Virus record (IMG/VR): IMGVR_UViG_3300045971_000895
Location: 128,001-192,000 of that record
Direction: 5' to 3' (one strand)
Length of the DNA stretch: 64,000 nucleotides
Source: a virus
Both the position numbers and the translations under genes were made by a program. The notes beneath the pieces were generated by a model. The model searched no databases. It was not told the origin of the DNA and saw only the letters and a list, made by a program, of their open reading frames with translations. Position 1 is the stretch's first letter; every line of letters starts with the position of its first letter. Shown here one piece after another: positions 14,699-58,773 of the stretch.

Positions 14699-15820
14699 AT
14701 GAGCGCCACTGCCGTTCCAGCCAAGGTCCTCAACGACCTCTTCTTCGAGAAGATCGGGTCCACCGAGGGCAAGGACAAGATCGCCGAGTTCGGAGGCACC
14801 TACATCCGGGACCGCCTCCGTGAGGTCTCGTTCGCCCGCAAGATCATCCCGCCCACTCCCGTCCAGCGGAGCGAGCTCCAGCGCTCGGTGAACCACGACA
14901 CGCTCGTCAAGATCGTGGACATCGAGCCGAACTCGAAGGCCACCAGCCTGACCTTCCGCGGTCAGCCGACGGCTCGGTTCATCCGCGCCCCGCGCTTCGA
15001 GATCCCCTTCTTCACCATCTCCTCGGAGAAGTTCGAGAAGACGGAGCAGGAGCTCCTGGCGTACGAGATGCCCATCACCAAGATCATCGAGGAGAACTCG
15101 GTGAAGGACATCCAGGCGATCGAAGACCGCCAGTTCCTGATCTTCGTCGAGGCCTGCATCCAGGCGATGCAGCTCTCCGCCAACGGTGGCACCGCGACCT
15201 CCAACAAGGTCAACGGCGGCACCGCCGTGGTGTCGTCGGTCATCAAGGGCGCCGGCGCCGTCACCGGCAACGCGAACACCTTCACGGTGTACTCGCTCCA
15301 GAAGAACGACTTCGTCAAGCTGAAGCAGCTCCTGCACCGGCGCTTCCTCCGGTCGGAGCGGCTCCTGATGACGGAGCCGGACTACGACACCCTCTCGACC
15401 TGGACCATGACCGAGGTCTGGAACATCGCTGCCGAGACGGCGACCGAGGGCTGGAAGAGCAACACCGTGGTGGGCCTGAAGATCATCCGGACCATCAAGA
15501 CCAACATCCTGCGCGAGGGCAACGTGTACTGCTTCACGGCGCCCGAGTTCTTCGGCCGGTTCTACATCCTGAACCAGACGAAGTTCTACATCGACAAGAT
15601 CGCCAACCTCATCACCTGGCAGAGCTGGGAAGACATCGGGATGGGCTTCGGCAACGTCGCCGCGGTCACCAAGCTCGAGCTCTTCGGTGGTGGCGTGGTC
15701 CCCGGCGCCTCGCCGGACTCCGGCTACGCGGCCGTCCTGCCGATGGACGAGTCCGACCTGAACCCGGTCAACAACCTGGCCGACGCCGGGACGACCTACC
15801 CGCAGGTCGACCAGTTCTAA
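14699..15820 (+). CDS. major capsid protein
   Basis: 373 aa. Its size and position are right for a capsid protein. Followed by the strongest terminator in the window. No internal Cys-rich or low-complexity region. The assignment rests on context plus general HK97-like length and composition. Confidence 0.6.
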   Translation: MSATAVPAKVLNDLFFEKIGSTEGKDKIAEFGGTYIRDRLREVSFARKIIPPTPVQRSELQRSVNHDTLVKIVDIEPNSKATSLTFRGQPTARFIRAPRFEIPFFTISSEKFEKTEQELLAYEMPITKIIEENSVKDIQAIEDRQFLIFVEACIQAMQLSANGGTATSNKVNGGTAVVSSVIKGAGAVTGNANTFTVYSLQKNDFVKLKQLLHRRFLRSERLLMTEPDYDTLSTWTMTEVWNIAAETATEGWKSNTVVGLKIIRTIKTNILREGNVYCFTAPEFFGRFYILNQTKFYIDKIANLITWQSWEDIGMGFGNVAAVTKLELFGGGVVPGASPDSGYAAVLPMDESDLNPVNNLADAGTTYPQVDQF

Positions 15821-45597: not shown

Positions 45598-48500
45598 ATG
45601 GCCCTTCGCAGGTTCCTGTTCCAGAACCTCGGTGCGGGCTCTGGCTTCTTCGATCAGAACCAGGACTCGGACGAGGTACAGGTAGCGAGGGTCACCATCG
45701 TCGCCGGCGTAGGCGGCGTTGGTCTCGCTCTTGGCCTGACCGACATCTCTGGGGCTCGGGACATCAGCGCCCGGTTCGTCTCGTTCACCACCGGCGTCAC
45801 CGGTGGCGTGGCGATCGACGCCGGCGGCCTGCGCATCACCAACCTGGCGCTCGTTCCCACCGGGCCCAGCGAAGCCGTCTCGATGCAGTTCGTCGTGGAC
45901 GCCATCGCTGGGATGACCGGCGTTGGCGCCACAGGAGCCACAGGCCCTGCTGGCCAGCAGGGACCAACCGGTGCCGCGATCACCGGGGCCACTGGCCCGC
46001 AGGGCTCGCCCGGGCCCACAGGGCAGCAAGGTCTTCAGGGCGTCACTGGAGCAACTGGGCCTGTCGGTCCGCAAGGCCCTACCGGAGCGGCGATCACAGG
46101 GGTCGCTGGGCCGCAAGGGGCAACAGGTGTCACGGGAGCCCGAGGTGCTGACGGCGTCACTGGGGCGACGGGCCCTCAAGGGCCGCAGGGGGTCACGGGA
46201 TTCACCGGTCCCCTTGGTCCTCAAGGCGTCGATGGCGTCACTGGTCCGCAGGGTCCGACTGGAGCTGGCAGCTATCCCGGTGGCACGACGGGGCAGCTGC
46301 AATACTTCAACGCCGGGTCCTTCGGTGGCGCTACCAACATTACTTTTGAGAACGGGTCGCTTGTTCTCAAAGCAGATGGTGTCCACCCAATACTGGTCAT
46401 CAAGAACTCTTCTGGCGTAACCGTTGGTGGATGGGATGCCTCCGCAGGGCATCTATCCACCACCTTCCTAGATCCTGTTGCATCGCTGCGTACAGGCCAT
46501 GATGGCTACTTCGAGCAGGGAGGTTTCTTCTTCGACTCTTCCCTTACGGCGACTACCGGAATAGCTGCTGACGTTCTTGTTCTGGATACGGCAGCTGCGC
46601 TTAGAACCAAGAAGGCTACGACCGCTCTTGAGATCCCCTTGGGGGTTGCGGGGCAGTTCAACGCGCCTACTTGGATGCTCACTAGCGGTAAGGCTAGCGT
46701 TACTGCGGATACTGCCGCAGTGGCCATTGGTGACCGTATCGTGATGTCCCCCACGCTGATTGGGGCCGTCACTCCCGACAACACATGGGACCTTGCGAAG
46801 CCCATGCTTGGGTACGCGCTGTCGAGCAAGGCAGGAGGGTCCAGCGGGGCAATCACTATATGGCTGGCCCAGCAAGCGGGGATACCGTCTCTCAACTACT
46901 CCGGCACGCTTGTCTCAACAAACAACATCACCGCACCAACGTTCCTCGGCAACGTGACGGGTACCGGGCCATCTTCCCTGGGGCCTTTGAGTGTCACTGG
47001 AGCAGCTACCGCAGATCAGCCTACGTTTGGCCCCGAGCTGCTCAGCGCAACAGGCTGGACTTCGGTCGGATGGACTGGCGGGCCTTGGCCTACTGGGTTC
47101 GCACACACCGCCGGCAACACTTCCGTTCTCTCCAACACCTTGGCTGCCGTCATCGGCACCAAGTACCACATCACGTTTGCCGTTACGGGGCGTACGGTCG
47201 GAACGTTCGACTTGCAGTTCGGTGGCCAGACCATCCCACTGCTGTTCTCTTCCACCACGGTCAACCTCGGGGACGCGAACGGCTACGGCAGCGTGGACCC
47301 TACCGCCACGACGACCGGTGGCCTGACGATCACTCCGACAACGGACTTCAACGGGACGATCACCCTCTCGATCAAAGCCATCACGGCCGTCTCTACTCCT
47401 GTGTTCAAGCTCCTCTCCAGCACGTGGGGAGTCCAAGTAGAGGTCCGCGTCAACACGGTAGAGAGCGGCACTAACATCGCAAGCATGTTCATCGGCCAGG
47501 ACTCTGGCTCCTATGCGACTACCGGGTTCAACAATACGTTCCTCGGTAACGCTGCGGGCATGAACCTGACGTCAGGCCATGACAACTGCGGCCAAGGCAA
47601 CCTGGCCCTCAAGGCTCTCACGGTTGGGTTCGGCAACTCGGCCTTTGGGTCTTACGCTCTTCGGCAGATCATCGCGTCCAAGTACAACACGGCGATGGGC
47701 ACCGGGGCTTTGCGGTTGCTCACCTCGGGCTACGGCAACACGGGCGTTGGGTTCAGTGCCCTCTACTCCAACACCACGAGCATCTACAGCTCTGCCCTCG
47801 GCGTAAGTTCCGGACGCTACTTGGTTGATGGCATCACCGAGCTTACTGACTCTTCCTACTCGGTGTTCCTGGGCTACAAGTCGATGTCGTTTGCCCAGGC
47901 ACAGACCAACGAGATCGTCATCGGAGCCTTGGCTCTTGGCAACGGCTCCAACACGGCCACGCTCGGTAACGACAGCGTCACCAAGACCTACCTCAAGGGC
48001 GTGCTCACGAGCTTGGTTGTTGATAGCGCCGCAGCGGTGGCTCATGCCATCAACTCCCCAGCCTACAGCACGGCCGGCGCCAAGCTCCTCTCGATCCGCA
48101 ACAACGGCGTCGAGAAGTTCTACGTCGACAAAGATGGCAACGCCTACTCGAACGGAGTGCTGCTCGGTGCCACGGGCCCAGCTGGAGCGACAGGAGCTCA
48201 GGGCGTTACTGGAGCACAAGGGATCCAAGGTGTCACCGGTGCAACTGGTCCGACTGGTCCACAAGGAGCCACTGGGCCGTTGGGTGCCACTGGCGTTCAA
48301 GGCATCCAGGGAGTCACTGGGTCGACAGGCCCTGCCGGCGCGCAAGGTGCCACGGGTCTTCAAGGCATTCAGGGTGTCACGGGAGCGACCGGGCCTACGG
48401 GCCCGAAGGGCGACACCGGCGCTGCGATCACTGGAGCGCAGGGCGCAACTGGTGTGCAGGGTCCGCAGGGCATCACCGGCGTCACAGGACCGATGGGACC

Positions 48501-51500
48501 TGGGAGTCCCTCCGCTGGCCCTCAGGGCAGCCCAGGCGTCACTGGTGCGACGGGTGCTCAGGGTCCACAAGGAGTAACGGGGGCAACAGGTCCCACTGGG
48601 CCTCAGGGCCCAACTGGCGCCGCCATCACTGGCGCTCAGGGTCTTCCCGGTGTCACCGGTGCTACGGGCACAACCGGAGCGCGAGGCGCGACCGGTGTCG
48701 ATGGTGTCACCGGCGCCACAGGTGTTCGCGGTGCCACTGGTGTGGACGGTGTGACCGGCGCGACGGGTCCTACGGGGGCTCGAGGTGCGACAGGCATCGA
48801 CGGAGTCACCGGGGCTACTGGCCCTCGTGGTGCAACCGGAGTCGATGGAGTCACAGGAGTCACGGGACCAACCGGCGCACGAGGTGCGACTGGCGTTCAA
48901 GGAGTCACTGGGGCTACTGGTCCTCAAGGGGCCACAGGCGTCGACGGCGTTACCGGATCAACGGGACCTCGAGGTGCGACCGGAGTGACTGGTGCGACAG
49001 GTCCTGTCGGTCCTCAAGGGCCTACGGGAGCGGCCATCACCGGCGCCATCGGGCCGCAGGGCCCGACAGGTGTGACCGGTGCTCGCGGCGCTGACGGCGT
49101 CACTGGCGCAACAGGTCCGACAGGGCCACAGGGTGTGCAGGGTCCTACTGGTGCGGCCATCACAGGAGCGCAAGGAATCCCCGGCACGACCGGAGCTACT
49201 GGCACAACTGGTGCGAGAGGCGCGACTGGCGTCGACGGTGTCACTGGTGCCACGGGGCCGACCGGACCGGTCGGTGCTCAGGGCGTGACGGGAGCTACCG
49301 GCCCAACAGGCGCACGGGGAGCGACGGGTGTTGATGGTGTGACGGGCTCGACAGGTCCTCGTGGCGCCACCGGCGTTGACGGAGTGACCGGAGCAACAGG
49401 CCCCACTGGTGCACGCGGGGCGACAGGCGTCGATGGAGTCACTGGGGTCACAGGCCCAACCGGTGCCCGCGGTGCAACGGGTATCACCGGTGCCACTGGT
49501 CCCATCGGCCCGCAGGGTGTGACTGGTGCGACTGGCCCGGTTGGCCCACAGGGGGCGACGGGCGCCACTGGTCCTGTTGGTCCGCAAGGCCCCACTGGTG
49601 CGGCGATCACTGGGGCTCAAGGCATCCAAGGGCCAACGGGTGCTGCGATCACGGGTGCGGTTGGTCCGCAAGGTGTCACCGGCGCTACTGGTGTGACTGG
49701 TGCTCGAGGTGCTGATGGCGTGACTGGTGTCACCGGCCCCGCCGGCGCCAGGGGCGCGACAGGCGTTGATGGTGTCACCGGCGTTACAGGTCCGACCGGA
49801 GCGCAAGGTGCCACTGGGCCTGGTGCGAACCCTGGCGGCATCACCGGCCAGATCCAGTTCAACGAAGGCCCGACCTTCAACGGCGACGTCGGCCTCACCT
49901 ACGACAAGGTGTCGAAGGCTCTCTTCGTCAGCACCATTGACGCTCTCCCCAACAACCCTCTCAGCCTGTTTGGGAGTGCGACGGCCGGAGCGACGAGCGG
50001 CGCCATCATCCTCACGCAGACCCCGGGCCTTACGGTCCCCGGGTCCAGGCTCTTCAGCCTCCGCAACAACAGCGCTGAGAGGTTCTACGTAGACGAAAGC
50101 GGCAGAACCTACGCAGCCGGCATGGAGGTATTCAAAACCAACGACGTGGTGATGAACACCAACCCGTTCGGTGGACGCAAGCTCTACCTCAACAGCATCA
50201 ACAATGCGCTCTTCCGTGCCGAGAGCCGCTGGGCCGTTACTGGGGCTCGGTACCTGACGAGCGACGACAGCCTTCTGTCTGCCATCTCGCAGGTGGAGCT
50301 CGCCACGCTCTTCGATGGCAACTACGAGGCGGTACTCAACATCCCCGCCGGCCAGTACATCATCGTCAACATCAACTTCGCCACCGAGCTCGGCTCCGGT
50401 GGCGTCTACCCCGGGTACCCGTACGGCAACTTCCTCGTCTCGCACTACTACACTGACTACTCTGCCGGGGGCACGGTCAGCGCGTACTCAACCTACGTGC
50501 CCCATGGCGTTGGGTGGCACTCGCAGACGTTCTACGACTACCTCCGAGTCGGCACCACCAACCTGATCCTTCAGGCGCGGAACGACGTCTACGCGATCTC
50601 TCAGCTGGAGTTCAAGTTCTCGGCGCTGCCAGGCACTGCGGCCAAAATCACCCAGATTGACTGGAACCTCGATCGCCCTGGCGGTAACGAGATGCCGCTG
50701 TTGGATAAGTTCAAGGCCAACATCCTGTACTCTCACTTGTCGTTTGAGAGCGGGCTTTCGACGACTGCTGTGATTTCGGTTGCCGGTGAGGGCCGCTTTG
50801 CTGCGCTGTACGGCGTCACTGGGTCGTTGCCGCTGCACGGTCAGGCCGTAGACGGAAGCTCTGCTGTTGGGGTGAGCGTCAACAACACGACTGCGCTCAC
50901 CACGGCTGGTGCGAAGCTCTTGTCTGTCCGCAACAACTACGTCGAGAAGTTCTACGTCGACAAGGATGGCAACTTCGGAGGCCCGAACGGCGTCTTCCGC
51001 GTTACGGAGACGCGCACTCTCCCGATCACTGTCGGGGACTATGTTTCGCTCGGCTCCGTTCAGGTCCCAAGCGGCGCACACCAGCTGATTGTTCAGCTTA
51101 CCGTGTCGAGCTCCGGGTTCTCCGTCGCGAAGCTCTACTTCGTCACTGCTGCCTACGGCCAGACGGGGAACGTTTGGAAGACTGTCGATCCCGTCGACGA
51201 CACGGGCCCGTTCTCGAACGACTTCGCGTTGGAGGTCAACACAGTCAACGCCTCACTCTTCCTGCGGGTGCGCCGTACTTCGGGAGCCGTTGCTGGAGTC
51301 GTCACGGCAGTCATGACGATCGGCGACTCCAACGTCGCTAGTTGGTTTACCGACTCCTCGACCGGGGGCACTGGGTCGGTGGCGACGGGCTACTTCGCCG
51401 GCGTTGCCTCCAAGATCCTGCGGAGCGGTCTTGCGGACTCAGGTTCGGCGGTCGCTGCGCTCATCGACACCACGGCGACGTTCACCACAGCTGGTGCGAA

Positions 51501-54500
51501 GCTCCTCTCCATCAGGAACGCGGGCATCGAGAAGGCCTACGTCGACAAGGACGGCAACTACTGGTCAAACGGCCAACAGATCAGCGTCACTGGCCCCACT
51601 GGCCCTCAGGGCGCCACCGGGGTCAACGGCGTCACTGGAGCAACTGGCCCAACAGGGCCTCAAGGCATCCAAGGCGTCACGGGAGTCACCGGTCCAACTG
51701 GTGCGCGTGGTGCTACCGGAGTTGATGGCGTCACCGGAGTGACTGGGCCTACCGGTGCACGAGGCGCCACTGGTGTTGATGGTGTCACGGGAGCAACCGG
51801 GCCAACAGGTGCTCGCGGCGCAACTGGTGTCACCGGAGCAACTGGCCCTGTTGGGCCGCAAGGAGTGACGGGCGCTACTGGCCCCGTCGGACCGCAGGGA
51901 CCTACCGGGGCAGCCATCACTGGAGCACAGGGCATCCAAGGTCCTACCGGAGCCGCCATCACTGGTGCTGTCGGGCCCCAAGGGCCTACCGGCGTCACGG
52001 GTGCGCGCGGTGCGGATGGTGTGACCGGGGCCACTGGGCCGACAGGTCCGGTTGGCGCACAAGGTGCGACAGGGTGGACAGGCCCCACCGGGGCGAGGGG
52101 TGCCACCGGTGTGGACGGCGTCACCGGCGTCACGGGCCCGACTGGCGCCCGCGGCGCCACCGGGGTCACCGGTGCCCAAGGCATCCAGGGCATCCAAGGC
52201 GTCACCGGGTCGACCGGCCCGCAGGGCGGGCAGGGCCTCCAGGGCGTCACTGGGGCCACGGGACCGACCGGACCCCAGGGCGCGCAAGGGGTGACAGGCG
52301 CAACGGGCCCCACGGGCCCGCAGGGCGCTCAGGGAGTGACCGGCTGGACCGGCCCGACGGGCGCCAGGGGCGCCACGGGCGTGGACGGTGTCACAGGTGT
52401 GACCGGACCCACCGGGGCCCGTGGTGCGACCGGCGTGACGGGTGCGCAGGGCATCCAAGGGAACCCCGGTGTCACCGGTGCGACAGGTCCTCAAGGCGCT
52501 CAGGGACCGACTGGTGCAGCCATCACTGGGCCGCAGGGTGTCACAGGAGCCACAGGGCCTGTCGGTTCACAGGGCCCGACAGGAGCTCTCGGCCCCACGG
52601 GAGCAGGCAGCTTCCCTGGAGGCGCGAACACTCAGGTCCAGTTCAACAACTCCGGCGCGTTCGGTGGATCTGCGAGCCTGTTCTGGAACGGCACCTCTCT
52701 CGTCGTAGGCACCTCTGCGGCAGGCTCCAGCCAGCTCTCAAGCGCCAACGCCTTCCAAGAGTACTGGTCTACGGAAGTGTACCCTCGCGTGTGGCTCTCC
52801 CGCGATGCAGGGTCGAGCGGCGTGGCCGGTCTGGCGTTCGGCATTGGCTCCGTTGCCCCGGACAGCAAGATCCATCGAGCCACCAACGGTGCTGGCCTCG
52901 CCTTGATGGGCGGCAACGTCGGCATCGGCACGACGACCCCTGGGTACAAGCTCGATGTGGCGGGTAACGCCAACATCAGCAACGGATCTTACTACTACGC
53001 TGGAGGCTTGCCGCTTTCGGCCGGCGCTGGTGCAGAAAACTACCTGTTCACCAGAACCAACGGCCTGCTGATCCGCAACGCAGGTGAGACCGCGACCCTT
53101 GGTGTCATCGACAACAGCGGTAATGCGTCGTTCATAGGGACGCTCTCCACAGGAGGCAACGCAGTCATTCATGCCGGTAACATCGGCACCCAGAGCGTCG
53201 CTAACGCAAACACTGTCGACTCGGTCCATTCGTCATCGCTCCGTCGTCTGGACTCGGACGGCTTCTTCTCTACCGGGACCTACCCAGGCAACCTGAACGG
53301 CTCTGACTACCAGTACACGTTCCAGTCTGCGCCACAGTCGATGATCGGGGATGCCTTCGCCTGGAACCCTCCCACGTCCTACGAGATATGGAATGGGTCT
53401 GCGTGGGTGTCCGGTGGCGCCGTACCAGTCGAGGTGTTCCGGGGAGACCCCGCCCAGAACTGGGGCAACGTATCCATCCCCTACGGGACGCAGAAGGTCC
53501 GCTTCACGTGGAACAACTTCGAGTACTTCTACTGGAACGCTCTCCAGATGGCCCACTCCACCAATGGGCACACCTTTGTCGTGAAGGTGCAGCAGAGCGA
53601 CGCAGCGGGAACGACGTTCACTGACACGGTCACCTCGGCCGCCATCGGCTCTTGGCCCGGGTATACGATCCTCCCTCACACGGGCGTTTCGCACCCCTCC
53701 AACACACTTCACGCTCGGATCGAGATCACCCCGACGTGGAATGGTACCTACCCTTCCAACACCATCGGCATCGGGCACATCGGCCTGCTGGGCGCGTATG
53801 GCCCGATGAGGAAGCTCTACACTTGGGACGCAGCTCGAAACATCTATCTCCAATCAAGCCTTGTCATCGACCCCACCGGCACCAGCGGCATCTACATCAA
53901 CTCCGCTAGCATCCGGCGGTCAGGGAACTCGTACCTCGATATCTCTGCCCCAGACGCTGGAGGACGCCTTAGACTTCGTGGCGCTTCAGGCGTTGGCATA
54001 TACAACGGCACAAACGACTACGATGTAATCCACGCGGGCAACATCGCGTCGCAGACCGTCGCCAGTGCCACCAACGTGACGTCAGTCGCTGACACTACGA
54101 CGACCAGTGGATTCTTACTCTTCCACCCCGGGAGCGGGACCTACCAGCCCAGACTGAGCGCGGCGCTATACTACGACGCTACTACTGGGTCTCTGTTCTC
54201 TACGAAGTTCTTCGGGAACGCTTCCGGGCTTACGGGTTCGGCGGGCAGTCTAACTGCCGGCGCGACCACGAATGTAACCGCTGGTGGGTCCGTCACCACT
54301 ACCACCATAAGCGCCCTGGTCGCGGGTGGAGCCTTAGACCCGTACGGCGCAGTCGCCATCGCGGCACCCAACGACGCTACCAGCCACTCCTACATGTCGT
54401 TCACTAGGAACGCGCAGGTAGGTATTGGGTTTGGTATCACGAGCTCAAATGAGTACTGGGTTGGGCCAGCCACGGCGGGCTTCGCCGGGGTGATGAGTGG

Positions 54501-55209
54501 TACGCCCTGGCTGCGTCTGAACGGCACTACTGCCCAGATCAACGGCAATAACATCATTCACGCCGGAAACATCGCCTCTCAGACCGCGGGTACCGCTACC
54601 AACGCCGTCAACGTTGGGGTCACCGACGACACGACGACCAACGCTACTCACTACATAACGTTCGTGAACACGGCCTCGGGCAACCGTGCGATCGAGGTCA
54701 GCAGCAGCAAGCTGACGTACAACCCGTCGACCGGTGGTCTCACCACCGCCGGCAACATCACCGGCAGCGACATCTATGCCATCCGTGCGAGCAATACGGC
54801 TTCAGGCGTCATCTACTTCGGCAACAGCGGCGCCCAGTACCTCTTCTACAACGGTGCTGGCGCATACAGCCTGACAAGCGGAACTCTGACCGTTGGTGGC
54901 ATCGTCTACGCCACCGACTTCTCGGCATCTTCCGACTACAGGCTGAAGGACAACATCGCCACCATCCCCAACGCGCTGCGCCGTGTTCTTGGGATGCGCG
55001 GAGTGAACTTCACACGCGCTGACGACGAGAGTAACCGTTTGCACATGGGCGTCATCGCGCAAGAGATGGAAGAGATCGCACCCGAGGTCGTCAGCACCGA
55101 CGAGCATGGTATGAAGTCCGTCAGCTACACAGGGCTGGTGGGCATCCTGATCGAAGCGGTCAAGGAACTTCAAACCAAGGTCGAGGCGCTCCAAGCGCAG
55201 AAGGTGTGA
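45598..55209 (+). CDS. giant collagen-like tail fibre (3203 aa) with C-terminal peptidase S74 intramolecular-chaperone domain
   Basis: Three Gly-X-Y segments (about 110, 550 and 340 aa) separated by beta-rich modules. The C-terminus '[55 protein letters not shown]...[17 protein letters not shown]' matches the auto-cleaving chaperone domain of endosialidase-type fibres. Confidence 0.82.
48170..49830 (+). repeat. collagen-like GXY coding repeat (9-nt periodicity, 'GgtGcgACnGGn' units)
   Basis: Hundreds of near-identical '[13 protein letters not shown]' triplets. Shorter copies at 45920..46270 and 51590..52610. Confidence 0.85.
51590..52610 (+). repeat. collagen-like GXY coding repeat (third segment)
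   Basis: Same unit as above. Prone to recombination and length variation. Confidence 0.85.
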
Positions 55210-55210
55210 C

Positions 55211-56338
55211 ATGAGCGGCAAGCGCGAGTTCCACATGGACTTGAACTTGACCAACCAGTGCAACCTTCGCTGCTCCTACTGCGTTGAGGCTGGGCTGTTC
55301 ACCTCCAAGACCTGCGAGGAGATGCTCCCTCGCTTCTACGCTTGGATCGACCGGTTCATCGGCTCCCAGTACTTCAAGGAGCGCTACGACGAGCTCCACA
55401 TCGCACTGTGGGGCGGAGAGCCGACGCTCGAGTGGCGAACCATCATCGAGTTGGTGCGGCGCTACCTCGGAGACAACCGGGTCGCGTTCTTCCTGTACAC
55501 GAACGGCTACAACCACCCCAAGGGTCTTCAAGACCTTCTGGTGGACGCCACCAACAAGCACCGAGAGCAGCCCGACAAGTACCCAGCCTTCCCCATCCAG
55601 ATCTCGTACGACGGCATGCCCCTACAAGACATGTTCCGCAAGACGGTCGGAGGCAAGCCGTCTTCGGAGCGCGTCATCGAGACCATCCGGTGGGCGCAGG
55701 CCAAGGGATTGGACTTCAGCCTCAAGGCCACGATCACCGTGGCGTCATTGAAGCACCTCTACGCAGCCTGGCATGACATCAACATCCTTGGCCGAGGCGA
55801 GCTCACTTACTTCCCCACACTCGACTACTACAACGCGGTGATCAGCGACGATACGGCTGTCCTCGACACCAGCATCGAGGAGATGAAGACCTGCATGAAG
55901 ATGATCGCCGCCGACACGCTCAGGGCTCGAGCGGCAGGGAAGCAGGTGGCGCACTTCAGGTGGTTCGACTCTGCGAAGGCCAGCTGCTCGGCGGGACAGA
56001 ACCTGTTCAGCGTGGACCTCGATGGTGTGGTGTACGCCTGTCACACCGCCCCCTACTCCGAGAAGAAGGCCGACCATGTCGTTGGGGCTCTGGAGGACGA
56101 CTTCTCGATCTTCGACGTATCTGCTGAGAAGCATCGCGGCCTCCGTCCGCACCAGTGCTCTGGCTGCGAGGCGGTCTTCTGCGTGGTGTGCAGCGTGTCG
56201 AAGTATCGGATGTCGGACAAGGACAACTACCTCGACCGGTGGATGGACTACACCAACGACGATGAGTCCTGCCGCATCTACCGAGAGATGGGCAAAGTCA
56301 CTCGTGCGTTCCTTCAGCTCAAGGAGGAGATCAAGTGA
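55211..56338 (+). CDS. radical SAM enzyme with C-terminal SPASM/twitch-like Cys cluster (peptide/protein-modifying maturase)
   Basis: 'CNLRCSYC' is CxxxCxxC 18 residues from the N-terminus. The C-terminal cluster is 'YACH...QCSGCEAVFCVVCSV...ESC'. The start is 2 nt after the fibre stop. Confidence 0.8.
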   Translation: MSGKREFHMDLNLTNQCNLRCSYCVEAGLFTSKTCEEMLPRFYAWIDRFIGSQYFKERYDELHIALWGGEPTLEWRTIIELVRRYLGDNRVAFFLYTNGYNHPKGLQDLLVDATNKHREQPDKYPAFPIQISYDGMPLQDMFRKTVGGKPSSERVIETIRWAQAKGLDFSLKATITVASLKHLYAAWHDINILGRGELTYFPTLDYYNAVISDDTAVLDTSIEEMKTCMKMIAADTLRARAAGKQVAHFRWFDSAKASCSAGQNLFSVDLDGVVYACHTAPYSEKKADHVVGALEDDFSIFDVSAEKHRGLRPHQCSGCEAVFCVVCSVSKYRMSDKDNYLDRWMDYTNDDESCRIYREMGKVTRAFLQLKEEIK

Positions 56339-56997
56339 GCTTCATGGGGAACACGTACTACCCACTGGCCGATCGCATCAGCTACGGAGACGTGGAGTCT
56401 GCGCTTGCCGACCTCGAGGCTCTGGACGCTCCAGAGAGCCACACTGACTTGCTGGCCCTGCACAGGTGGTTCCAGGTCAGCACGGGGAAGCTGCGCTGCT
56501 ACACCAAGCTGAAGCGCCTCGAGGATGCTCGGGCCATCGCGTCTCGTATGATCTCTGTGAGCCCAGAGAACATGGCCGCCATGGTGGGCGACTACCCGGT
56601 GGCGGGCTTCTCTGCTGCCCTGATTCAGTTCATGCGTTTGGTAGATCAGGGGAACTTCATGACCAACCCTGCGCTACAGCCTTACCGAGACTTCTTGGAT
56701 CTCAACCTTGCCGTAGACGGGAATCGCCACGGTGCTCGCGTGTACGCTCTGTACAAGCTCGGAGTCGATGCTGCTTGGAACATGCGCCAGGACGAGCCCG
56801 CGATGGGGCCCACGCTTGCCCTGCTGGACGCCTTGACCCCAGACAACATCAGCCTTCTTCAGGTTGGGCACATGAGCCTACTGTTCTTTGCGGTCCACAT
56901 GCTGTCGGTACTGACCGGCCATCTACCTCCAGAGTCCGAGGTGGTTGCTCGAGTCAAGGCCCTAACGGAGACCGTGCTCGCGCTCCCGCGCGGGTAA
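56335..56997 (+). CDS. all-helical partner protein of rSAM cassette (220 aa)
   Basis: GTG/ATG start overlapping the rSAM stop (GTGA). No motif recognised. Helical repeat-like composition. Confidence 0.5.
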   Translation: MSFMGNTYYPLADRISYGDVESALADLEALDAPESHTDLLALHRWFQVSTGKLRCYTKLKRLEDARAIASRMISVSPENMAAMVGDYPVAGFSAALIQFMRLVDQGNFMTNPALQPYRDFLDLNLAVDGNRHGARVYALYKLGVDAAWNMRQDEPAMGPTLALLDALTPDNISLLQVGHMSLLFFAVHMLSVLTGHLPPESEVVARVKALTETVLALPRG

Positions 56998-57003
56998 CTG
57001 ACC

Positions 57004-57678
57004 ATGGCGATCATCCCATCGTTGCCGCCCATCGTCCTCAGAGGCTCGACCAGCATCGCCACCAATGCGGTGAGCGTGAACATCTACGGCACGCCAACTA
57101 ACCTGACCCTCACCGCGACCATCGTTCGTACGCTCTTCGCCAAGCTGACTGGGACGATCAATCTCTTGGATGGAAGGGGTAAGTGCTACTCCAACTGCCT
57201 GTGCAACGGCGATTGCGGCTGCGACGCCAACTGCGGCTGCGACGCCAACCTGTGCGGCTGCGACGCGTTCTGCCCGGCTCCTGATGTCCCACTGCGTATG
57301 GCGGATGGGACCGAGAAGCTCGCTGGCGACATCGTGGTCGGAGACCTGGTGGTGGCTTGGGATGAGCACGCAGGAGAGTTCTCTACTCGCAAGGTCATCC
57401 ACGCATCACTCCACTCCAACCTCCGAATGCTCCTCGAGCTCAACAACGGGAAGTCCGGAGAGTTCGCAGCCAACCACAGGTTCCTCACGCAGAAGGGCCG
57501 TTGGGTCGAGCTTCAAGATCTCCATGTTGGTGAGAGGCTCTCGACGGGGCTGCTGGTCACCAAGACGGCGCTCACCTGCATCGGCCCCGTCGTGTCCATC
57601 ACCGTCGAGGACCTGCACACCTACGTCACCCTCGGCGTCATCTCTCACAACGTCAAGAACTGTCCGCCAGGAGTCTAG
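57004..57678 (+). CDS. Cys-rich (CxC-repeat) peptide fused to Hint/intein-like (BIL-type) autoprocessing domain
   Basis: Residues ~60-90 are 'CYSNCLCNGDCGCDANCGCDANLCGCDAFC'. Hint block A is 'CPAPDVPLRMADGTEKLAGDIVVGDLVV'. Block B is 'ANHRFLTQKGRWVELQDLHVGERL' (compare 'TANHRFLT' in the DnaB mini-intein). The C-terminal block is 'VEDLHTYVTLGVISHN', followed by 'VKNCPPGV' with no Cys/Ser/Thr at +1. Confidence 0.75.
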   Translation: MAIIPSLPPIVLRGSTSIATNAVSVNIYGTPTNLTLTATIVRTLFAKLTGTINLLDGRGKCYSNCLCNGDCGCDANCGCDANLCGCDAFCPAPDVPLRMADGTEKLAGDIVVGDLVVAWDEHAGEFSTRKVIHASLHSNLRMLLELNNGKSGEFAANHRFLTQKGRWVELQDLHVGERLSTGLLVTKTALTCIGPVVSITVEDLHTYVTLGVISHNVKNCPPGV

Positions 57679-57681
57679 GGC

Positions 57682-57975
57682 ATGTACACATCGCTCACGA
57701 ACGACGACCTCTCCGCAGAGTCCCTCTCAACACTGTCTCCCAAGGACAGGGCCTATGTGGAGGCCGCGGTGCTCATCATCGCAGCCAAGGAGTTGATTGC
57801 ATCCCACGAGCCTCTCTATGGTGAGATGCTGAGCGTTCAGGCACACCACCTGCTCGGGCCTCTGCGGAAGAAGAAGACAGAGGACGCAGCAGCAACAGCG
57901 GCCAGGCTGAAGAGCGAAGTAGACGACATCGCGAAGGACATCCAGCGGTTCACCATCGAAGGGAGCAAGAGATGA
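57682..57975 (+). CDS. hypothetical protein (97 aa)
   Basis: ORF. Confidence 0.45.
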   Translation: MYTSLTNDDLSAESLSTLSPKDRAYVEAAVLIIAAKELIASHEPLYGEMLSVQAHHLLGPLRKKKTEDAAATAARLKSEVDDIAKDIQRFTIEGSKR

Positions 57976-58127
57976 ACAACACCAACGATACCCAGAAGCC
58001 CGAAGTCACCGGCGGCACCTCCACGAAGACCGGCTGGGCCGGCGTGCCTGCCACCACCAAGTACATCGTGATCGGCGTGGGGGCATTCCTCCTCCTCGCC
58101 GCGCTGATGGCGCTGAAGTTCCGGTAG
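57972..58127 (+). CDS. tiny single-pass membrane protein (51 aa), holin-like candidate
   Basis: 'MNNTNDTQKPEVTGGTSTKTGWAGVPATTKYIVIGVGAFLLLAALMALKFR'. ATGA overlap with the upstream gene. Confidence 0.35.
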   Translation: MNNTNDTQKPEVTGGTSTKTGWAGVPATTKYIVIGVGAFLLLAALMALKFR

Positions 58128-58151: not shown

Positions 58152-58189
58152 GAAGAGGGTCCCCAGGCAATCACCCGGGGACCCTCTTC
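58152..58189. terminator. bidirectional GC hairpin terminator preceded by 'TGATAGGTAAGAAA'
   Basis: agagggtcccc...ggggaccctct between convergent genes. Confidence 0.6.
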
Positions 58190-58218: not shown

Positions 58219-58773
58219 CTAGTTCATCGCCACCATCAACACCTTGGCCTGCTTCCGGTATCTCTCGATCCGGGTGCTGTACACAAGCCTGAGCTCGGTG
58301 TCCGCGGTGTTGTAGAACGAGTACCCCAGGCTCTCTGGGTGGCGGTCGAGTACGTCACGAAGGATCTTCGCTGCGATGCGCAGGTTGTATCCATCGTCGC
58401 TACGCAGCCTCTTGGCGTCGAGCTCGAGCTCGTCCACCCAGAATGAGTTCACCTGTGCGAGGCCATAGTCACAGGTACGGCGGCCACTGGCGTTATAGCA
58501 GCTCTTGGCGCCGGTCTTGAAGTGACTCTCTTGGCGCACGATGGCACCGAACAGAGCCACGTCGATCTTGAACTCGTTGGCCACCTCTTCGACCAGACGA
58601 GCGATGCGCTCAGCTTCGGGTGCGCTGAGGTGAGGGTTTGACGTCTTCACGAAGGTGAGCAGCTTCGGTGTGGGCAGCGGTGCTGGTAGAGCCGGCGGCA
58701 GCTGGGTGTCACTCGTCTTCAGCGGCGAGATGCACGCCGTGAACAGAGCAGCAGACAGAAGTAGTCGTCTCAC
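58219..58773 (-). CDS. lytic transglycosylase (SLT domain) lipoprotein
   Basis: 'QESHFKTGAKS...DYGLAQVN' SLT catalytic-Glu motif. Signal peptide plus lipobox-like 'ALFTAC'. GTG start after AGGAGG. Confidence 0.72.
   Translation of the reverse strand: MRRLLLSAALFTACISPLKTSDTQLPPALPAPLPTPKLLTFVKTSNPHLSAPEAERIARLVEEVANEFKIDVALFGAIVRQESHFKTGAKSCYNASGRRTCDYGLAQVNSFWVDELELDAKRLRSDDGYNLRIAAKILRDVLDRHPESLGYSFYNTADTELRLVYSTRIERYRKQAKVLMVAMN

Follow-up and report, generated by a model that had tools for sequence, protein, structure and literature searches.

What is a predicted self-processing Hint domain doing at the end of a short, cysteine-dense protein in the genome of a tailed phage, and what would it set free? 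The question is raised by the gene at positions 57,004 to 57,678 of a stretch of 64,000 nucleotides taken from the virus record IMGVR_UViG_3300045971_000895 (positions 128,001 to 192,000 of that record); this whole stretch is called the window below, and coordinates without a locus name refer to it. A first-pass annotation, made from the letters alone, had read the gene as a metallothionein-like CxC repeat fused to a mini-Hint domain that lacks the nucleophile at position +1. We find that the Hint domain is genuine, that it is of the type A bacterial intein-like (BIL) kind, and that the repeat in front of it is accompanied, in all ten loci examined, by a radical S-adenosylmethionine (radical SAM) enzyme. 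The reading that we favour, with a confidence slightly better than even, is that the gene encodes a phage protein which is cross-linked by this enzyme, removes its own Hint domain and ends up as a virion- or tail-associated product.

The gene and its parts

The open reading frame (ORF) codes for 224 amino acids, and the elements originally placed in it (the frame itself, the cysteine cluster, the Hint blocks and the Val at +1) are all present at 57004..57678: a cluster of nine Cys (residues 61-86), then a mini-Hint domain (residues 90-216) and a tail of eight residues. Its parts are the following.

57004..57183, plus strand: N-terminal segment, residues 1-60; family-specific, either a leader or a small domain, conserved within the family.
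57184..57270, plus strand: Cys/Asp(Asn) hexad repeat core, residues 61-89, CYSNCLCNGDCGCDANCGCDANLCGCDAF; predicted radical SAM substrate.
57271..57651, plus strand: mini-Hint domain, type A BIL-like, residues 90-216; assigned by profile, fold and conserved catalytic residues.
57652..57678, plus strand: tail VKNCPPGV (residues 217-224) and stop codon; Val at +1, Lys at +2 conserved.

Nine homologues, all of them metagenomic and 37-64% identical, retain the frame and the Hint blocks of this gene, and for this reason the ORFs that overlap it in other frames are not the gene. The cysteines of the core stand at residues 61, 65, 67, 71, 73, 77, 79, 84 and 86, giving CLC once and CGC three times; part of the core is encoded by an 18-nucleotide tandem DNA repeat at 57214-57266, and the copy number of the repeat differs among homologues. 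The core motif in the Hint subfamily can be written (C-x-C-[D/N]-x-[N/D/Y]) x3-4, the window version being CGCDAN. When the cores of nine family members are pooled, Cys makes up 32% and Asp plus Asn 23% of the residues, and each core contains three to six [N/D]xxC motifs. The core of the window protein also includes the aromatic residues Y62 and F89, and it abuts Cys1 of the Hint domain without a linker.

As to the N-terminal segment, it ends in a conserved G-(K/H) placed directly ahead of the first Cys, and a phmmer search with residues 1-93 against 1.84 billion representatives returned one family member only. The first-pass annotation had described it as a beta-rich leader; a leader is still one of the two options given above, and the beta-rich part of the claim finds little support in the AlphaFold2 (AF2) model built with the family alignment, in which the predicted local distance difference test (pLDDT) score stays below 57 over residues 1-90.

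A Hint domain that keeps its catalytic residues

Does the C-terminal domain really belong to the Hint superfamily, or is the resemblance fortuitous? Chance similarity had been named at the outset as one outcome that would overturn the assignment, and alignment to BIL and Hedgehog profiles together with an AlphaFold model had been proposed as ways to decide. A profile of the family, run against PDB sequences, matches 8w20 (E=9e-9), the BUBL BIL2 domain 6y75 (5e-6) and the C. thermocellum BIL 2lwy (8e-4), as well as DnaB and RecA mini-inteins, and Hedgehog chains appear with E values of 0.1-0.9 only. With the family alignment as input, AF2 models residues 91-218 at a pLDDT of about 85-90, and the top Foldseek matches of this model in the PDB are again BIL2, DnaB mini-inteins and the C. 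thermocellum BIL (E 2.6e-9 to 9e-8, TM-score up to 0.79). The NCBIfam model intein_Cterm (TIGR01443) passes, at 18.0 for a cut-off of 15.6. The window protein is slightly under the cut-off of Pfam PT-HINT (PF07591), at 24.6 for 27.7 bits; in the family as a whole, PT-HINT matches six of ten members (E<=0.01, best E 1.5e-8) and Intein_splicing seven of ten. Profile, predicted fold, structural neighbours and TIGR01443 all agree, and the domain is a member of the Hint superfamily, not a case of chance similarity.

The catalytic residues lie where they are expected. C90 is Cys1, at the head of block A ('F/CPAPDVPLRMADG...GDLVV'); block B ('AANHRFLT...GRWVELQDL') supplies His158; and the C-terminus of the domain, HTYVTLGVISHN, holds H205 (block F) and H215-N216 (block G), after which VKNCPPGV begins. 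In a sample of 35 unique members of the Hint clade (31-100% identity), C90, H158 and the triplet S214-H215-N216 occur in 35 of 35 sequences and H205 in 34. The residue at +1 is Val or Ile (12 each), Ala (six), Leu or Met (two each) or, once, Thr; it is never Cys or Ser. Judged by these residues the domain is best classed as a type A BIL-like Hint, with Cys1, the block-B His and a terminal His-Asn and with no nucleophile at +1, and the original assignment to the BIL type holds. Cleavage at its N-terminus through a thioester and at its C-terminus by Asn cyclisation is to be expected. The further statement that it cannot splice is correct for the canonical route and goes too far otherwise: in type A BILs the amine of the freed C-fragment can attack the thioester, so that the flanks are ligated, with cleavage products dominating (PMC4031507).

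The tail offers an observation of its own, not accounted for by the known rules for inteins and BILs. Lys218 (57655-57657) has its counterpart at +2 in 32 of 35 sequences of the clade, the three exceptions having it at +3; the remaining tail residues are unconstrained, and the tail is 3-12 residues long in 34 of 35.

Three more familiar identities were considered for the domain and rejected. A canonical intein does not agree with Val at +1, a tail of eight residues, varied N-terminal carriers and no conserved host protein; a PT-HINT toxin does not agree with a score under the cut-off and with only eight residues, and no toxin domain, after the Hint; and a Hedgehog/Hog Hint, which would have a sterol/adduct recognition region after it and no terminal His-Asn, does not agree with a domain that ends in HN plus eight residues, the Hedgehog E values being those given above.

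A radical SAM enzyme that accompanies the repeat

The gene belongs to a small cassette, three other genes of which are the following.

55211..56338, plus strand: radical SAM/SPASM enzyme, called rSAM-A here, 375 amino acids; predicted Cys-repeat modifier; Pfam Radical_SAM 1.8e-9, above cut-off.
56335..56997, plus strand: 220-amino-acid protein, all-helical; its start overlaps the stop of the radical SAM gene by 4 nucleotides.
57682..57975, plus strand: 97-amino-acid helical protein; homologues directly downstream in L001, L003, L009 and L014.

The best NCBIfam matches of rSAM-A are Cys-directed maturases, namely PapB (2.5e-20), anSME, CcpM, QhpD and those for CXXX-repeat and SCIFF substrates; none of them reaches its equivalog cut-off (73 for 340 bits in the case of PapB). 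The CX3CX2C motif at residues 17-24 and the SPASM cysteines 259, 277, 316, 319, 324, 327 and 354 are invariant in 27 of 27 homologues. The enzyme is without the N-terminal extension that would hold a recognition element (RRE) for a ribosomally synthesised and post-translationally modified peptide (RiPP), for which a CX3CX2C motif beginning at residue 17 leaves no room; among PDB sequences the only match is that of its N-terminal core with 8vpo.

A Cys-repeat gene adjoins an rSAM-A orthologue in ten of the ten loci examined (the window, L001, L003, L007, L009, L011, L012, L014, L015 and L016); L011 qualifies because six-frame translation shows that the start of the contig lies inside the Cys-repeat gene. 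The complete cassette of radical SAM, 220-like, Cys/Hint and 97-like genes recurs in L001, L003, L009 and L014. In L007 the 220-like gene is upstream, the orthologous radical SAM gene downstream and a second radical SAM gene further upstream, and the protein P0007 encoded there has a much longer repeat, CNCNYACTCVCNY..., of the form that we call CNCNY, ahead of the same Hint. More distant orthologues of rSAM-A (27-39% identity) adjoin Cys-repeat genes that are devoid of Hint domains, in L012/L013, L015 and L016. When 33 Hint-clade loci (285 kb) were searched for homologues of the radical SAM, 220-amino-acid and 97-amino-acid proteins, they were found only in the Cys-repeat locus L017 (which is L001), and none of the 32 Hint loci devoid of a Cys repeat has a radical SAM gene. 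The family member P0009, whose pre-Hint segment has no Cys cluster, likewise shows no homologue of any of the three proteins on its 4.7-kb contig. The Cys-dense ORFs that seem to be present in GC-rich Hint loci are out-of-frame Arg/Cys artefacts. It is the Cys repeat, and not the Hint domain, that the enzyme accompanies.

The wider family of CNCNY repeats

The window repeat represents one variant within a far larger family, which we define by CxC[N/D] repeats beside an rSAM-A orthologue. Homologues of the Hint-less protein of L012 make up at least 449 clusters, of 150-330 amino acids, with a common layout: an N-terminal helical domain (HxNELRxAIxxExxRR), the N-terminal part being a domain of 100-150 amino acids in the wider family, is followed by (CTCNCNYx)n, and CxxH repeats are often found at the extreme N-terminus. 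The examples used here are the following.

L012:7235-7846, L015:7001-7696, L016:7001-7606 and proteins P0034-P0153: CNCNY-repeat proteins.

These genes lie in clusters of three to at least eight radical SAM genes on phage-like contigs of 100-300 kb. Neither Pfam nor NCBIfam has a model for the repeat, and 'CNCNY' was not found as a sequence motif in the papers searched, which gave no account of the family either; the phmmer search with residues 1-93 detected no sequence-level homology between the N-terminal part of the window protein and this family.

How do the Hint-less relatives end? Among the best 120 CNCNY proteins, about 69 finish in a stub of 12 residues, 'SDxRLKxDIxY[LIM]' (for instance P0040, P0041, P0056 and P0067), which is the junction (first) motif of the Peptidase_S74 intramolecular chaperone; eight have the full S74 domain, and in 32 the chain terminates where the repeat does. 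About 77 of the 120 thus finish in Peptidase_S74 or its junction motif, and since such a stub or domain follows the repeat in most of them, a removable module at this place is the rule, of which the Hint domain is one version.

Directly upstream of the cluster of radical SAM and CNCNY genes in L016 (L016:382-3048) we also noticed genes for an Fe/Mn superoxide dismutase, NifU, an APS kinase and a UDP-glucose dehydrogenase, which may have an auxiliary role in supporting Fe-S enzymes.

Tail fibres and Hint-capped tail proteins

The window is part of a tailed-phage genome, to judge by its genes for the large terminase TerL (9e-59), for a protein resembling head proteases, for a major head protein and for a Peptidase_S74 fibre. 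The fibre gene lies directly ahead of the cassette in the late operon.

45598..55209, plus strand: collagen-like tail fibre, 3203 amino acids; C-terminal Peptidase_S74 1.3e-15; ends 1 nucleotide before the radical SAM gene.
57972..58127, plus strand: 51-amino-acid ORF that closes the operon, with a hydrophobic helix at its C-terminus; homologue in L001; overlaps the 97-amino-acid gene by 4 nucleotides.

The fibre contains long collagen-like G-X-Y tracts with globular repeats interspersed. The order of the operon is tail fibre, radical SAM/SPASM, 220-amino-acid protein, 57004-57678, 97-amino-acid protein, 51-amino-acid protein, with junctions of 1, -4, 6, 3 and -4 nucleotides. The order of fibre and then cassette is also that of L001 (a 153-kb viral contig, where the fibre is again of the collagen/S74 kind), L009 and L014, the fibre being shared in four loci.

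The same Hint clade is also found elsewhere in phages, as the C-terminal 130 residues of proteins of 780-1156 amino acids, with a tail of 4-12 residues after it and a Gly-rich linker before it ('GGGTGGGTGGGG/CPAPDVPL'). These carriers match the PHROG families tail fibre (2.5e-98 and 3.4e-67), tail protein (5.5e-117) and central tail fibre J, and also Pfam Phage-tail_3 with Rcc01698_C.

L021:1998-5399, L028:1929-5399, L037:1929-5357, L034:2307-5486 and L049:2805-5393: Hint-capped tail proteins.

One carrier is encoded in the chromosome of Sphingomonas desiccabilis CP1D, in a prophage region (L049:2805-5393), and one in a metagenome-assembled genome of the Holophagaceae. This arrangement suggests that tail proteins are matured at the C-terminus by a Hint-based step.

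A tblastn search of 50,697 phage records gave distant intein/Hint matches only (terminase inteins, Lak phage) and no orthologue, and a search with the J-type Hint gave a single gut-phage record, which is unannotated. In BFVD many phage proteins carry the automatic name 'Hint domain containing protein'; Hints other than inteins are therefore already catalogued for phages, but we found no functional description of them.

A curious protein of 483 amino acids (L035:4173-5624) combines N-terminal 'ISFSALRNNF' / 'LSLSQFRNS' motifs, this Hint domain, Pro-rich and Gly-rich stretches and an S74-type stub, 'SDLRLKKNI', that is, two self-processing motifs in one chain.

A proposed mechanism and its alternatives

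We propose that 57004-57678 encodes the substrate in a small cassette within the late operon. The radical SAM/SPASM enzyme would cross-link the repeat, most likely through thioethers between Cys sulfur and the beta carbon of Asp or Asn, of the ranthipeptide or QhpD kind. The analogues are NxxcA (Asn-x-x-Cys), freyrasin (six Cys-Asp links) and the beta-thioethers made by QhpD (PMC8326336; PMC12373016), and the composition of the repeat and its [N/D]xxC motifs fit this known Cys-Asn and Cys-Asp chemistry. In the order that we suppose, an N-to-S acyl shift of Cys90 at the Phe89-Cys90 bond would then give a thioester; this would be resolved by water or by an amine, either the alpha-amine freed when Asn216 cyclises or Lys218, and an N-terminal product of about 89 residues, ending exactly at the repeat, would be released. 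The mature product is probably a cross-linked protein associated with the virion or the tail and not a free metal-binding peptide, because the cassette shares an operon with a tail fibre in four loci, the other carriers of the Hint clade are tail fibre and tail-tip proteins, and S74 modules occur on the Hint-less relatives. The small free peptide of the first-pass annotation is doubtful on the same grounds: the Hint clade caps tail proteins, and the repeat family has Peptidase_S74 ends of the tail-fibre type.

Several points weigh against this proposal. rSAM-A is far under every equivalog cut-off, and the type of reaction, drawn by analogy, is a guess; the spacing Cxxx[D/N], which includes the CXXXD of PapA, occurs in no core of the nine family members. 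The enzyme has no RRE and the cassette no protease or exporter, and the locus thus departs from the textbook RiPP pattern. Model confidence is low over the N-terminal 90 residues, and the proposal gives no role to the 220- and 97-amino-acid partners. The association with the virion rests on gene neighbourhood and on analogy with other Hint and S74 carriers. Finally, CxC repeats could simply bind metal in their unmodified state.

This last possibility is that of the original name, a metallothionein-like peptide or metal ladder in which the CxC pairs would bind Zn, Cu, Fe or an Fe-S-type cluster, the Hint domain would merely release it, and the radical SAM enzyme would be unrelated or would receive metal or a cluster from the repeat. 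It is favoured by the make-up of the core, which is 32% Cys, has its Cys spaced as CxC and is free of His, Lys and Arg, and by the NifU and superoxide dismutase genes close to one related cluster (L016). Phage fibres can moreover bind metal through repeated side-chain motifs, as the HxH iron sites of T4 gp37 illustrate. However, no metallothionein family in Pfam or NCBIfam matches at E<=1, metal thiolate clusters do not require the Asp/Asn that recurs at a fixed position of the hexad, and aromatic residues (Y62, F89) stand in the core. In ten of ten loci the repeat is coupled to a radical SAM/SPASM enzyme that resembles peptide maturases, and Hint loci that have no repeat lack this enzyme; so strict is the coupling that we reject metallothionein as the primary reading; 'metallothionein-like' is not the best description of a regular Asp/Asn hexad always paired with radical SAM/SPASM, and we regard the metal-binding peptide as unlikely. 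We think it just as improbable that the product is a diffusible phage RiPP, with residues 1-60 as a leader cut after G-K, a cross-linked core of 29 residues as the active antimicrobial or signal, and the Hint domain as a self-removing follower in place of a C-terminal protease. A radical SAM/SPASM gene beside that of a Cys-rich substrate is the classic RiPP pattern (PMC8326336), the conserved G-(K/H) stands just before the first Cys, the N-terminal segment is family-specific, and the core, like those of RiPPs, is of variable length; but the operon lacks a leader peptidase, a transporter and an immunity gene, the enzyme lacks an RRE, the wider family has an N-terminal domain of 100-150 residues and Peptidase_S74 ends of the tail-fibre type, and in four loci the cassette forms one transcription unit with a gene for a tail fibre.

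Could the Hint domain serve to ligate and not only to cleave? The thioester would then pass the cross-linked N-fragment to an amine, for which the conserved Lys of the tail at +2 (a kind of 'side-chain splicing') and a Lys on a tail-fibre protein or on a host target such as a surface protein are candidates. Enzyme-free conjugation has been proposed for the eukaryotic BUBL BIL domains, and the closest structural neighbour of our domain is precisely the BUBL BIL2 of Tetrahymena, which makes the thioester ligation already suggested in the first-pass annotation attractive. A Lys is present at +2 or +3 in 35 of 35 sequences, the rest of the tail being variable, and the full apparatus for Asn cyclisation is kept despite there being almost no C-extein; type A BILs do ligate through attack of an amine on the thioester, but in those characterised the cleavage products dominate (PMC4031507). 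The Lys could equally serve Asn cyclisation or folding, and the acceptor is only hypothetical, and we consider conjugation quite improbable, be it through the tail Lys or a Lys elsewhere. There is hardly any case for a decaying intein or a remnant of a PT-HINT polymorphic toxin that has no present function. It would account for PT-HINT as the best Pfam match and for the matches to intein profiles, phage genomes being rich in inteins, but the catalytic residues are invariant (H205 in 34 of 35) in 35 sequences that diverge to 31% identity, and the Hint domain is terminal and not inserted in a conserved host protein, with 3-12 residues after it, no toxin and no homing endonuclease.

The rest of the neighbourhood

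The two helical partners deserve some description. Homologues of the 220-amino-acid protein are present in all six cassettes that have both a Cys repeat and a Hint domain, whereas neither the CNCNY clusters devoid of Hint domains nor the 32 Hint loci of tail proteins have any; the protein itself gives only weak TPR matches in Pfam, its AF2 model from a single sequence is poor (pLDDT 52), and its profile has no relative in the PDB. The 97-amino-acid protein matches no family in Pfam, NCBIfam or PADLOC and is absent both from the CNCNY clusters devoid of Hint domains and from the other Hint loci. Two features lie beyond the end of the operon.

58152..58189, no strand assigned: 17-bp G+C-rich hairpin, between the plus-strand operon and the convergent minus-strand SLT gene.
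58219-58773, minus strand: SLT-domain transglycosylase; Pfam SLT 1.7e-8.

The hairpin probably acts as a bidirectional terminator, and the SLT gene and the 51-amino-acid ORF with its hydrophobic helix may be a lysis module adjoining the cassette. A role of the cassette in anti-phage defence was considered and rejected: PADLOC reports only a generic similarity to radical SAM proteins (pVip), in the N-terminal part of the enzyme, and has no match for any of the other four proteins. Elsewhere in the window, ARAGORN predicts an unusually long tRNA-Arg(TCT) of 92 nucleotides (15243-15334, minus strand), amid head genes and on the strand opposite to them.

What would be new

The two halves of the system are of known kinds, a type A BIL-like Hint on one side and a radical SAM/SPASM enzyme with a Cys-rich substrate on the other. 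Their fusion, its setting in a phage structural operon, and its links both to clusters of CNCNY and multiple radical SAM genes and to Hint-capped tail proteins appear to be undescribed in the collections and papers searched. Literature searches found no paper that joins a Hint domain with radical SAM and RiPP, or an intein-like domain with a precursor peptide and radical SAM, and nothing relevant on phage radical SAM/Cys-rich proteins or on phage-encoded RiPPs.

If our proposal is true, this would be, to our knowledge, the first known case of a radical SAM 'RiPP-type' substrate that carries its own self-cleaving Hint. It would provide a protease-free way to set the C-terminus of a modified peptide, with evident value for engineering in that intein-style thioester chemistry and enzymatic macrocyclisation are combined. 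It also suggests that phages cross-link some of their late or structural proteins after translation, a step that is missing from present views of how virions are assembled, and it would make the Hint clade a second self-processing module for tail proteins besides Peptidase_S74. The gene would also be tied to the at least 449 unannotated CNCNY-repeat clusters found among groups of three to at least eight radical SAM genes. If it were the conjugation reading that proved true, enzyme-free covalent ligation of proteins would take place in phage tail assembly or host attachment and would be common to all Hint-capped tail proteins, in parallel to eukaryotic BUBL.

Comparison with known systems

Type A BIL domains were reportedly described by Amitai in 2003 and by Dassa in 2004. 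They have since been reviewed (PMC4031507). The window Hint shares with them and with PT-HINT domains the mini-Hint fold, Cys1, the block-B His, His-Asn and the lack of Cys, Ser or Thr at +1, as well as its place in a variable, non-housekeeping protein. It differs from both by its position at the extreme C-terminus, with a tail of 3-12 residues and no toxin or other downstream domain, and by the conserved Lys at +2; and, unlike those of type A BILs, the carriers of its clade are phage tail proteins and a radical SAM substrate. The BUBL BIL2 domain of Tetrahymena (PDB 6y75 / 6tmm) is closest by Foldseek (E 2.6e-9) and is also found by profile (E 5e-6), and it resembles our gene in that a BIL immediately follows a small domain, the C-terminus of which it would activate; it differs in being eukaryotic, in its ubiquitin-like N-extein, in an identity of only 21-26%, and in having no radical SAM partner.

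With the pairs PapB-PapA (freyrasin), CteB-CteA, NxxcB-NxxcA and QhpD-QhpC the window shares a radical SAM/SPASM enzyme encoded beside a substrate with repeated Cys and Asp/Asn, and [N/D]xxC motifs like those of NxxcA are present in its core. It departs from the ranthipeptide and SCIFF systems in that the equivalog cut-offs are missed widely, there is neither an RRE nor a CXXXD motif, and the substrate is a protein of 224 residues with a predicted self-cleaving Hint, in a phage structural operon that has no protease or exporter. What it has in common with metallothioneins is a short segment with about 30% Cys and CxC spacing; the regular Asp/Asn hexad, the aromatic residues, the pairing with radical SAM, the fusion to a Hint and the lack of any family match set it apart from them.

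A further parallel is with the Peptidase_S74 chaperones of tail fibres and endosialidases, which are likewise self-removing modules at the C-terminus of phage tail proteins and which, in the Hint-less relatives, occupy the same place right after the Cys repeat. The fold and the chemistry are unrelated, and a Ser-Lys dyad protease that is also a trimerisation chaperone does there what a Hint domain would do here through a Cys thioester; ligation is not possible for Peptidase_S74 because it forms no thioester intermediate.

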